64,000 nt of DNA from Escherichia coli (GTDB lineage Bacteria > Pseudomonadota > Gammaproteobacteria > Enterobacterales > Enterobacteriaceae), in assembly GCF_045037415.1 (NCBI RefSeq), contig NZ_CP173438.1, one strand, 5' to 3'. This document shows, one piece after another, positions 16,369 through 61,471 of this stretch; within the stretch, counting starts at the first letter, position 1; every line of letters begins with the position of its first letter. The position numbers were made by a program, and so were the translations under genes. The notes beneath the pieces are model-generated. The model ran no database searches. It was not told where the DNA came from and was given only the letters and a program-made list of their open reading frames with translations.

Positions 16369-16860
16369 TTAATCGCGGAAGTTTTTGAACTGGAACGGCT
16401 GACCCAGATCGCCACCACGTACCATCGCCATGACAGCCTGTAAATCATCACGAGATTTGCCCGTCACACGGATCTCATCGCCCTGAATTTGCGCCTGCAC
16501 TTTCAGTTTGCTGTCTTTGATCATTTTGACGATTTTCTTCTGAGTCGCGCTCTCAATGCCCTGTTTCAGTTTCGCTTCCACAAACCAGGTTTTACCGCTA
16601 TGAACGATATTTTCCGGTACATCCAGTGAACTGCCTTCAATGCCGCGCTTCAGCAACTTGGCACGCAGAATATCCAGCAACTGATTGACCTGGAAGTCGG
16701 ACTCGCTCAACACTTTGATGGTTTTGCTGGCGTCATTCAGCTCAAATGAGGCTTCAACGTTACGGAAGTCAAAACGGGACTCCACTTCGCGGCTCGCGTT
16801 ATCGACCGCGTTACGTGCTTCCTGAAGATCAACTTCAGAGACAATATCGAAAGATGGCAT
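16369..16860 (-). CDS. yajQ: Nucleotide-binding protein YajQ (UPF0234 family)
   Basis: ORF 16369..17028 trimmed to Met57 (163 aa) [22 protein letters not shown]. Confidence 0.85.
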
Positions 16861-16937
16861 CTTTTCCTCTCCCTTCATTTTTGATGCGAAGCATAATACC
16901 TGCAAAGTTAAATAACCAACAGTCCTGCACCAGGACG

Positions 16938-16985
16938 TATCCCTTAATTGTGCATAGTCGCAACAGCATGCACAATTAAGGGATA
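16938..16985. other. Perfect 18-bp inverted repeat (TATCCCTTAATTGTGCAT / ATGCACAATTAAGGGATA) with 12-nt spacer, yajQ/panE divergent region
   Basis: Read directly from sequence; arms are exact reverse complements. Confidence 0.85.
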
Positions 16986-17027
16986 GCCTTATTGAACACC
17001 CGGAGTGGTTGCGGGTGAGGAGGAACA

Positions 17028-18492
<1,465 letters not shown>

Positions 18493-59553: not shown

Positions 59554-59615
59554 TTTATTTTCTCCATGTACAAATACATTAAAAAATAAAAACAAAGCGA
59601 CTATAAGTCTCGGCC

Positions 59616-59633
59616 GTGACAACTTTATGACAG
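59616..59633 (-). promoter_or_regulatory. Pho box in the phoA promoter
   Basis: Minus strand reads CTGTCATAAAGTTGTCAC with a TATAGT-like -10 downstream. Confidence 0.85.
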
Positions 59634-59653
59634 CTGTTGAAAAGATTAACTTT

Positions 59654-59914
59654 TTACTGACGAGGATGCCTCAATAACTTCTTTACGTAATCGCGCAGCA
59701 GCTCCGTATCGTCGTCAGGAATGCTGGCATCGGGCTTTACCTCGTACAGCGCCCCCTCTACCTGATCAATCAACCGCTGTTGATCATTTTGCGCCATATT
59801 GCGAAGCATTGCCGTGACGATAATCTCCAAAGCTTCTACCTGCGCACACAGTTCTTTCGACTCTTCTTCTTTTTGGGCAAGCTTAAATAACAACTCAGCA
59901 ATGAGATTTTTCAT
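59654..59914 (-). CDS. iraP: Anti-adapter protein IraP (RpoS stabiliser under phosphate starvation)
   Basis: 86 aa [33 protein letters not shown]; recognised IraP (yaiB) upstream of phoA. Confidence 0.9.
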
Positions 59915-60376
59915 GTCTGTATTTCCTTATCCAAAGTATGGAGAAGTTAACATTATGTTTCACAACTTCATAGTGTCTGGAAGTATTATTTTTATGACAA
60001 AGGAAATACTTTGCGCAAATATTTTTTGTTTGATTACCAGCGAAACGTTTCTCTTATTTAAATAATTACCCACATAAAATATAGGTCTTTAATTATCAAC
60101 CTTTATTATAAATAAAAGTTATGAAATATATTCTCTTCGTTATCTTATAATTAAGAGAAAAAAACTCACCACATGGTCATTTAAGCCAGGAATAAATTAG
60201 CTTCCCGTTCATCATTTTTGTGATCTTGCACACATCTTTGAGATAACGCACTTTCTTCACCAGTACGTTGCTCGCTTTGTCAGCAGAAGATTGCAACATT
60301 CTGTCAGAAGGCCGCGAATCCCCCGTTTTGTCGTGGTAATGTATGCACTTTGTGTTAGACGGGATAGGTTTTTAAG

Positions 60377-61471
60377 ATGGAAAAACTGCGGGTAGGAATC
60401 GTTTTTGGTGGTAAATCAGCGGAACATGAAGTGTCTCTGCAATCGGCAAAAAACATTGTCGATGCCATTGATAAAAGTCGCTTCGATGTTGTGCTGCTGG
60501 GCATTGATAAACAAGGGCAATGGCACGTCAGCGATGCCAGCAATTATCTGCTAAATGCAGACGATCCTGCCCATATTGCGTTGCGTCCTTCGGCGACCAG
60601 CCTTGCGCAGGTGCCAGGTAAACATGAGCATCAGCTTATCGACGCACAAAACGGTCAGCCGTTGCCGACGGTGGATGTCATTTTCCCGATTGTCCACGGT
60701 ACGCTGGGCGAAGATGGTTCCTTGCAGGGAATGCTGCGGGTCGCCAATTTACCGTTTGTAGGTTCTGATGTTCTGGCTTCAGCGGCCTGTATGGATAAAG
60801 ATGTCACCAAACGTCTGCTGCGCGATGCCGGGCTGAACATTGCGCCATTTATTACCCTGACGCGCGCTAATCGTCACAACATCAGTTTTGCCGAAGTGGA
60901 GTCTAAACTGGGGTTACCGCTGTTTGTAAAACCGGCTAATCAGGGCTCTTCTGTTGGTGTCAGCAAAGTAACCAGTGAAGAACAGTACACAATTGCCGTC
61001 GATCTGGCGTTCGAGTTCGATCATAAAGTGATCGTTGAGCAAGGGATCAAAGGTCGTGAAATCGAATGCGCAGTTCTTGGCAACAATAACCCGCAAGCAA
61101 GCACCTGTGGCGAGATCGTACTCACCAGCGATTTCTATGCCTACGACACCAAGTACATTGACGAAGATGGCGCGAAAGTGGTAGTTCCGGCAGCCATTGC
61201 GCCAGAAATCAACGATAAGATCCGGGCGATTGCCGTTCAGGCTTATCAGACGTTGGGATGCGCAGGCATGGCGCGTGTAGACGTGTTTTTAACCCCAGAG
61301 AACGAAGTGGTGATCAACGAGATCAACACCCTGCCTGGCTTCACCAACATCAGTATGTATCCGAAGCTGTGGCAAGCCAGCGGTCTGGGTTACACCGACC
61401 TGATCACGCGTTTGATTGAGCTGGCGCTGGAGCGTCACGCTGCGGATAACGCACTGAAAACCACAATGTAA
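60377..61471 (+). CDS. ddlA: D-alanine--D-alanine ligase A
   Basis: 364 aa [27 protein letters not shown]; ATP-grasp fold; recognised DdlA. Confidence 0.95.

Follow-up and report, generated by a model that had tools for sequence, protein, structure and literature searches.

The validated small membrane proteins of E. coli are single-transmembrane proteins of <50 aa that were found by screens for Shine–Dalgarno (SD) sequences and conservation and by ribosome profiling with initiation inhibitors, and many of the validated small proteins of this species are young and poorly conserved. A candidate that invites comparison with this class is a 36-codon open reading frame (ORF) in the intergenic region between iraP and ddlA of an E. 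coli genome, within a stretch of 64,000 nucleotides that is referred to below as the window. The candidate resembles the validated proteins in its size of 36 aa, its intergenic site, its SD-like motif and the overall hydrophobic composition of its peptide. It is unlike them in that its peptide has no unbroken hydrophobic span of ~18–20 residues, its frame is not conserved even within Escherichia and shows no bias of synonymous over nonsynonymous change, and it lies outside the curated MG1655 gene list.

The same DNA is occupied by a second described system, the promoter and leader of iraP, which is activated by ppGpp and DksA in E. coli and by PhoP in Salmonella. ppGpp acts directly on the iraP promoter (PMC10957080), and in Salmonella, where there are also a second PhoP box and a start independent of PhoP, the leader of the PhoP-dependent iraP mRNA is 218 nt long (PMC3335776). 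Since this published control of iraP falls in the DNA considered here, the ORF region is iraP promoter or leader DNA, and the conserved blocks that we found in it are like those of such a region in that they resemble a −10 element, a discriminator and upstream elements. A third system may bear on the same locus through RpoS: a Salmonella delta-rbsR mutant has less RpoS protein while rpoS transcription is unchanged, by a mechanism left unexplained, and insertions in iraP came from the same screen and were not connected to rbsR there (PMC10965054, which also cites the RbsR paper by Mauzy & Hermodson). On the evidence set out below, we consider it very probable that the 36-codon frame is an accidental ORF running across the iraP control region and not the gene of a small membrane protein.

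The 36-codon frame and what chance would give

As read from the sequence, iraP lies on the − strand of the window (59654..59914) and ddlA on the + strand (60377..61471), forming a divergent pair, with phoA next to iraP and also on the − strand. The gap between the pair (59915..60376) is 462 bp long with a GC content of 33.5%. Over positions 59600–60500 the window is 100% identical to E. coli SK1144; the IS1397 copy (IS3 family) that SK1144 carries between araJ and mak (16622–17970 in the SK1144 locus) is missing from the window at ~50022, and the two strains are otherwise near-identical. In order to compare the gap with the other intergenic regions of the window, their lengths and GC contents were obtained by mapping the RefSeq gene table of a near-identical strain onto the window. 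The sequence-only reading of this DNA had described the gap as the longest non-coding stretch in the window, which is true by just 3 bp (462 bp versus 459 bp for the ampG–cyoA gap). It had also described it as the most AT-rich, and this is nearly so: the 100-bp phoA–iraP gap is slightly lower in GC (30.0% versus 33.5%), but the lowest-GC 200-bp stretch of the window (24%) is at 59981, inside the ORF region.

The candidate ORF (59955..60065, + strand), which encodes the peptide MFHNFIVSGSIIFMTKEILCANIFCLITSETFLLFK and ends with TAA at 60063–60065, is preceded by the SD-like motif GGAGAAG (59940..59946, + strand), with 8 nt between the motif and the ATG at 59955; the coordinates and the translation are exactly those first claimed for it. 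Its counterpart in MG1655 is complement(401235..401345), and relative to the ATG of iraP it covers −151 to −41. Read backward from the ATG, the frame meets no stop codon before a TTG at 59799, which would give 88 codons, antisense to iraP. The predicted duplex between the motif and the anti-SD sequence (−6.4 kcal/mol) is as strong as that of phoA and ranks this ATG in the top 4.7% of those in the window. The GGAG core ends 11 nt ahead of the ATG, a spacing that is longer than usual, and the motif is not conserved outside Escherichia, Citrobacter and Salmonella having GGTTGAC or GGGTGAC instead.

The length of the ORF is not beyond chance. Among 5000 dinucleotide shuffles of the gap, 55% contained an ATG-initiated ORF of at least 36 codons, the median longest ORF being 37 codons, and the same was true of 16% of shuffles when only the 266-bp AT-rich part was used. 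An ORF of at least 36 codons with an equally good anti-SD match was present in 1.8% of shuffles of this one region, and the GRAVY of the peptide (1.22) places it in the top 2–4% of shuffled ORFs. For this one region the combination is therefore mildly unusual, but it was chosen post hoc out of 64 kb, and the DNA in question is not random sequence. The ORF is 41% T, and the hydrophobic look of its peptide arises because T-rich codons give Phe, Ile and Leu.

The peptide had also been judged hydrophobic enough to be a single-pass membrane micro-protein, and this judgement is not supported by its residues. Lys16 and Glu17 interrupt the hydrophobic stretch, so that at most 15 consecutive residues are free of D, E, K and R, short of the ~18–20 uncharged residues expected of a membrane span, and the best 19-residue segment on the Kyte–Doolittle scale (mean 1.66) itself includes K16 and E17. 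The equivalent frames in Citrobacter and Salmonella encode peptides that are polar, not hydrophobic.

Conservation of the frame and of the DNA beneath it

Conservation of the frame was assessed in 80 species-level loci encoding IraP, together with eight further E. coli records and K-12. Within E. coli the frame depends on the length of a T6 homopolymer inside the ORF (60022..60027, + strand), which varies among strains such that T5 and T7 alleles shift the frame. The T6 allele was found in 5,055 of 5,426 complete E. coli genomes, indicating that the frame is intact in at least 93% of them. The T5 allele, which is carried by YZB902 and is present in 72 of the 5,426, leads to a stop at 25 aa; the T7 allele of E. 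coli EcPF5 replaces the last 12 residues and so creates a new C-terminus; and a deletion in E. coli KR2009 leaves 14 codons. Beyond the species, Escherichia sp. E1V33 and E. whittamii have a TGA stop at codon 9, while the 3′ half carries a frameshift in MOD1-EC7003, SCPM-O-B-8794, E69 and E. albertii, and in all six of the other Escherichia lineages sampled the frame is cut or shifted. The result that the sequence-only reading had itself named beforehand as refuting its translated micro-protein, frame-disrupting indels in close relatives, was thus obtained among E. coli strains as well as for each of the other Escherichia lineages sampled. In more distant relatives, a frame of 35–36 codons opens from the same ATG in three Citrobacter sp., C. 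koseri and two Salmonella subspecies; across the whole set, an ATG is present at the equivalent site in 33 of the 80 species, and the frame from there ranges from 2 to 47 codons.

The pattern of substitutions was then compared with that of the adjacent iraP gene in the same genomes. Relative to E. coli, the differences in the ORF at codon positions 1, 2 and 3 numbered 9, 15 and 8 in Citrobacter and 15, 16 and 6 in Salmonella, with dN/dS values of 0.5–2.3, compared with 12, 2 and 28 differences and dN/dS values of 0.10–0.12 for iraP. The three polymorphisms observed in the ORF within E. coli were all amino-acid-changing. The outcome, with changes relative to Citrobacter and Salmonella mostly at positions 1 and 2, is not a coding-type pattern. 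Judged by these substitutions, the 36-codon frame appears to be free of purifying selection.

Annotation and protein collections gave a similar picture. Curated MG1655 has no annotated feature in the iraP–ddlA gap, and nothing is annotated under the ORF in 59 of 60 E. coli records evenly sampled from 5,421, the single exception being the deletion strain KR2009, in which a 'hypothetical protein' is annotated on the minus strand beneath the match. Neither the E. coli peptide, nor its natural variants, nor the Citrobacter and Salmonella versions were present among ~15 billion predicted proteins; the 36-aa frame had no NCBIfam match; and the microproteome supplements of Fesenko et al. contained no match to iraP, ddlA or the peptide.

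The conservation that does exist in this DNA is blocky, not periodic. This is seen when Escherichia, Citrobacter and Salmonella are aligned and also when the alignment is broadened to 81 Enterobacteriaceae sequences, in which the conserved non-coding blocks are at −138..−124, −80..−66 and −43..−29 from the iraP ATG, in addition to the iraP SD, which reads TAAGGAAAT in the iraP direction. The block at ~−43..−29 reads CATAATGTTAACTT in that direction. A scan against the consensus, together with conservation, identified a sigma-70 promoter-like site in the iraP direction (59952..59979, − strand), consisting of CAGACA, 16 nt and CATAAT, and the ATG of the ORF (59955–59957) is the complement of the CAT in this −10-like hexamer. 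Downstream of the hexamer, TGTTAAC-TT is strongly conserved in the 81 sequences. The block TCATAAAAATAATAC (59981..59995, − strand, iraP orientation; ~−81..−67 from the iraP ATG), where the ORF reads 'IIFM', may be either a second −10-like element or another regulatory footprint. Of these blocks, 59952..59979 is our candidate for the working iraP promoter. The ROSE supplement contained no entry at the iraP–ddlA locus.

A possible RNA structure of the leader also involves this DNA. The iraP SD region (59919..59928, − strand), which reads AAGGAAAUAC on the mRNA, is perfectly complementary to 60000–60009, a segment inside the ORF (codons K-E-I-L) that would read GUAUUUCCUU on any long iraP leader (− strand) and could be an anti-SD partner. 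This perfect 10-nt inverted repeat is used by the minimum-free-energy fold (z = −2.1), and the UUCCU:AGGAA core of the pairing is kept in 12 of 12 sequences, without covariation. We regard an SD-sequestering hairpin in a long iraP leader as possible and as a lead only, given a modest z and pairing that does not covary. A search of Rfam returned only two sub-threshold chance matches, to a snoRNA and a miRNA.

Taken in the iraP direction, these elements offer an explanation of the frame. The ORF would sit opposite the iraP promoter and leader strand by accident, and its conserved 'residues' would be DNA signals read in the iraP direction, namely CATAAT with TGTTAAC, the TCATAAAAATAATAC block and an RbsR-type palindrome described below, such that the amino-acid conservation of 'IFM' and 'SETFL' is best read as conservation at the level of DNA. 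Indels would be rare beneath the frame because spaced iraP regulatory elements lie there, and it is because indels are rare, and because the T-rich strand avoids stops in frame, that the frame would be open in most E. coli and of equal length in a few Citrobacter and Salmonella. The fallback offered by the sequence-only reading, that the region is just iraP and ddlA promoter DNA, agrees well with these observations, as the positions at which the ORF is conserved fall on blocks that look like promoter or operator DNA in the iraP direction.

Gene loss between ddlA and iraP and other readings of the frame

In most Enterobacteriaceae the distance between ddlA and iraP is 1.6–2.4 kb, and in Salmonella, Enterobacter and most other genera the interval contains an extensin-like ORF (~230 aa) and an MdtG-like MFS transporter gene. 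Both genes are missing in Escherichia, where the gap is 450–464 bp, and in three Citrobacter sp., where it is ~600 bp. By this comparison of gene order, the ddlA–iraP gap of E. coli is a deletion scar from which two genes have been lost, and the loss of the extensin-like ORF and the MdtG-like gene accounts for its unusual length and AT-richness. The gap (59915..60376) is composite, made up of a conserved regulatory stretch of ~200 bp on the iraP side, a middle rich in AT, a conserved island of 23 bp and 82 bp of conserved ddlA-proximal DNA, the three conserved pieces being what E. coli has retained. Using blastn and tblastx, the Salmonella and Citrobacter loci matched gap positions 1–82, 154–176 and ~254–457 only, numbered in the iraP orientation. 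The ddlA-proximal 82 bp (60295..60376, + strand), which are 83% identical to Salmonella and Citrobacter, are presumed from their position to be the ddlA promoter and leader.

The 23-bp island contains a CRP-like site, TGTGA-TCTTGC-ACACA (60219..60234), with one mismatch to TGTGA-N6-TCACA. Most species that have retained the MdtG-like gene carry a perfect version, which in other genera lies upstream of that gene, and 39 of the 80 loci have the site with no more than one mismatch; in all Escherichia it is kept with one mismatch despite the loss of the gene. These comparisons indicate that the predicted CRP-like site is a relic of the promoter region of the lost MdtG-like transporter gene. Any promoter served by this relic would now face iraP.

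The gap also carries a 67-codon 'hypothetical protein' called by PGAP (60096..60299, − strand), which spans the CRP-like island and which an internal stop makes a pseudogene in this strain. In K-12 the frame is whole yet unannotated; it has no NCBIfam match and belongs to a cluster of 677 members confined to E. coli and Shigella, with stops or frameshifts in every other Escherichia species. With its frame disrupted both here and in every Escherichia species other than E. coli, the 67-codon call is likely spurious. The 36-codon frame behaves like this neighbor and in that respect resembles spurious ORF calls in AT-rich intergenic DNA; the two differ in that annotation pipelines leave the 36-codon frame uncalled.

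Three other accounts of the 36-codon frame were weighed against an accidental ORF. That the frame is the gene of a real small hydrophobic protein, young and restricted to E. coli, whose + strand transcript begins within or slightly past the 5′ end of iraP, would be consistent with the SD-like GGAG (−6.4 kcal/mol), with the joint occurrence of ORF and SD in 1.8% of shuffles, albeit for a combination chosen after the fact, with the GRAVY of 1.22, with a frame that is intact in ~93% of E. coli genomes, and with a read-length + strand fragment in an RNA-seq compendium (Tjaden). The frames of 35–36 codons from the same ATG in some Citrobacter and Salmonella likewise speak against an accidental ORF. 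We nonetheless consider the young protein very unlikely, in view of the natural frameshift and deletion alleles in E. coli, the disruption of the frame in all other Escherichia lineages sampled, the lack of purifying selection, the SD spacing of 11 nt, the charged residues that split the hydrophobic run, and the absence of the peptide from curated MG1655 and from the protein collections. In addition, there is no promoter-like site upstream on the + strand, as both + strand matches would start ≤10 bp from the ATG or downstream of it. The fragment in the compendium is 51 nt long and on the ORF strand (K-12 401297–401347, minus; window 59953–60003). It starts 2 nt before the ATG, is itself of read length, does not include the SD and covers 16 codons only. 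It is important to note that the compendium lists three minus-strand K-12 fragments in the gap, that its 'Other transcripts' sheet consists mostly of read-length pieces, to which we gave little weight, and that its authors call this class of fragment rarely expressed and possibly noise.

The same fragment would suit a short non-coding RNA, divergent or antisense to iraP, that arises from the symmetric AT-rich −10 region of iraP acting as a bidirectional promoter, on which any ribosome loading would be incidental and which, itself or through being transcribed, could affect the iraP promoter. On the + strand the complement of CATAAT is CATTAT, which would be a −10-like hexamer with four of six matches, and there are two + strand promoter-like matches (59947–59974 and 59994–60023). 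The number of promoter-like matches in the consensus scan equals what shuffles lead one to expect (3 versus 2.4), the fragment comes from the class that the compendium authors doubt, and no Rfam family was found, so that we hold such an RNA to be unlikely, if less so than the young protein. The gene loss described above raised one further account, in which the frame is what decay has left of an ancestral protein-coding gene between ddlA and iraP, as two genes have indeed been lost from the gap in Escherichia. This was rejected on synteny, and we consider its probability negligible: the ORF lies in the iraP-proximal 200 bp, which are intergenic and downstream of the stop of the MFS gene where those genes persist (the Salmonella coordinates are 2204 for the end of the MFS gene and 2495/2501 for the start of iraP), and tblastx matched the gap to none of the coding sequence of the lost genes.

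An operator-like palindrome upstream of iraP

The 'SETFL' codons of the ORF coincide with an invariant palindrome, AGCGAAACGTTTCTC, an operator-like element of the RbsR type (LacI/GalR family) that reads CAGCGAAACGTTTCTCTT at 60038..60055. In the iraP orientation the block reads AGAGAAACGTTTCGCTGG and lies at −141..−124 from the iraP ATG. Its 15-bp core (60039–60053) is invariant in 16 of 16 aligned sequences from Escherichia, Citrobacter and Salmonella, and ~58 of 80 Enterobacteriaceae species have a recognizable palindrome whose distance upstream from the iraP ATG is 123–141 nt, with clusters at 137–141 nt and 123–129 nt. All 40 matches with ≤3 mismatches in 410 kb of fetched loci were at the position of the iraP palindrome, and none were elsewhere. 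With regard to spacing, a change in the length of the T-run alters the distance between the palindrome and the promoter-proximal blocks by 1 bp, and in E. albertii 12 bp are deleted from the same interval (~2380–2400 in its locus versus 60020–60035 in the window).

The closest counterpart of the palindrome is CAGCGAAACGTTTCGCTG, just upstream of rbsD in K-12, which we take to be the RbsR operator and with which CAGCGAAACGTTTCTCTT is identical at 16 of 18 positions. The two have the same central AAACGTTT, and the iraP palindrome has one perfect half-site, GTTTCGCTG in the iraP orientation. They differ in that the second half-site of the iraP palindrome is degenerate (AGAGAAAC or AGAAAAAC) and in that it lies far upstream of the iraP start codon, whereas the rbsD operator overlies the core promoter and SD. 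The PurR and Cra consensus sequences fit the palindrome worse, with 6 and 8 mismatches, respectively, and RbsR is the candidate binding protein.

Five RbsR peaks are reported from genomic SELEX, and no RbsR binding at iraP was described in the literature that we searched for both terms. We speculate, as a tentative proposal on which we would sooner bet against than for, that the palindrome at 60038–60055 is a working RbsR operator, which would place iraP and, through IraP, the stability of RpoS under the ribose repressor across the Enterobacteriaceae. If true, such an operator would directly explain the lower RpoS protein level in the Salmonella rbsR mutant (PMC10965054).

The analysis of this locus removes a false lead, as it illustrates that base composition and regulatory elements on the opposite strand can by themselves yield a hydrophobic ORF with a good-looking SD. 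Its by-product may be the more useful outcome, namely a strongly conserved RbsR-type operator-like site at a fixed distance upstream of iraP that, if functional, would link sugar sensing to the control of RpoS proteolysis.
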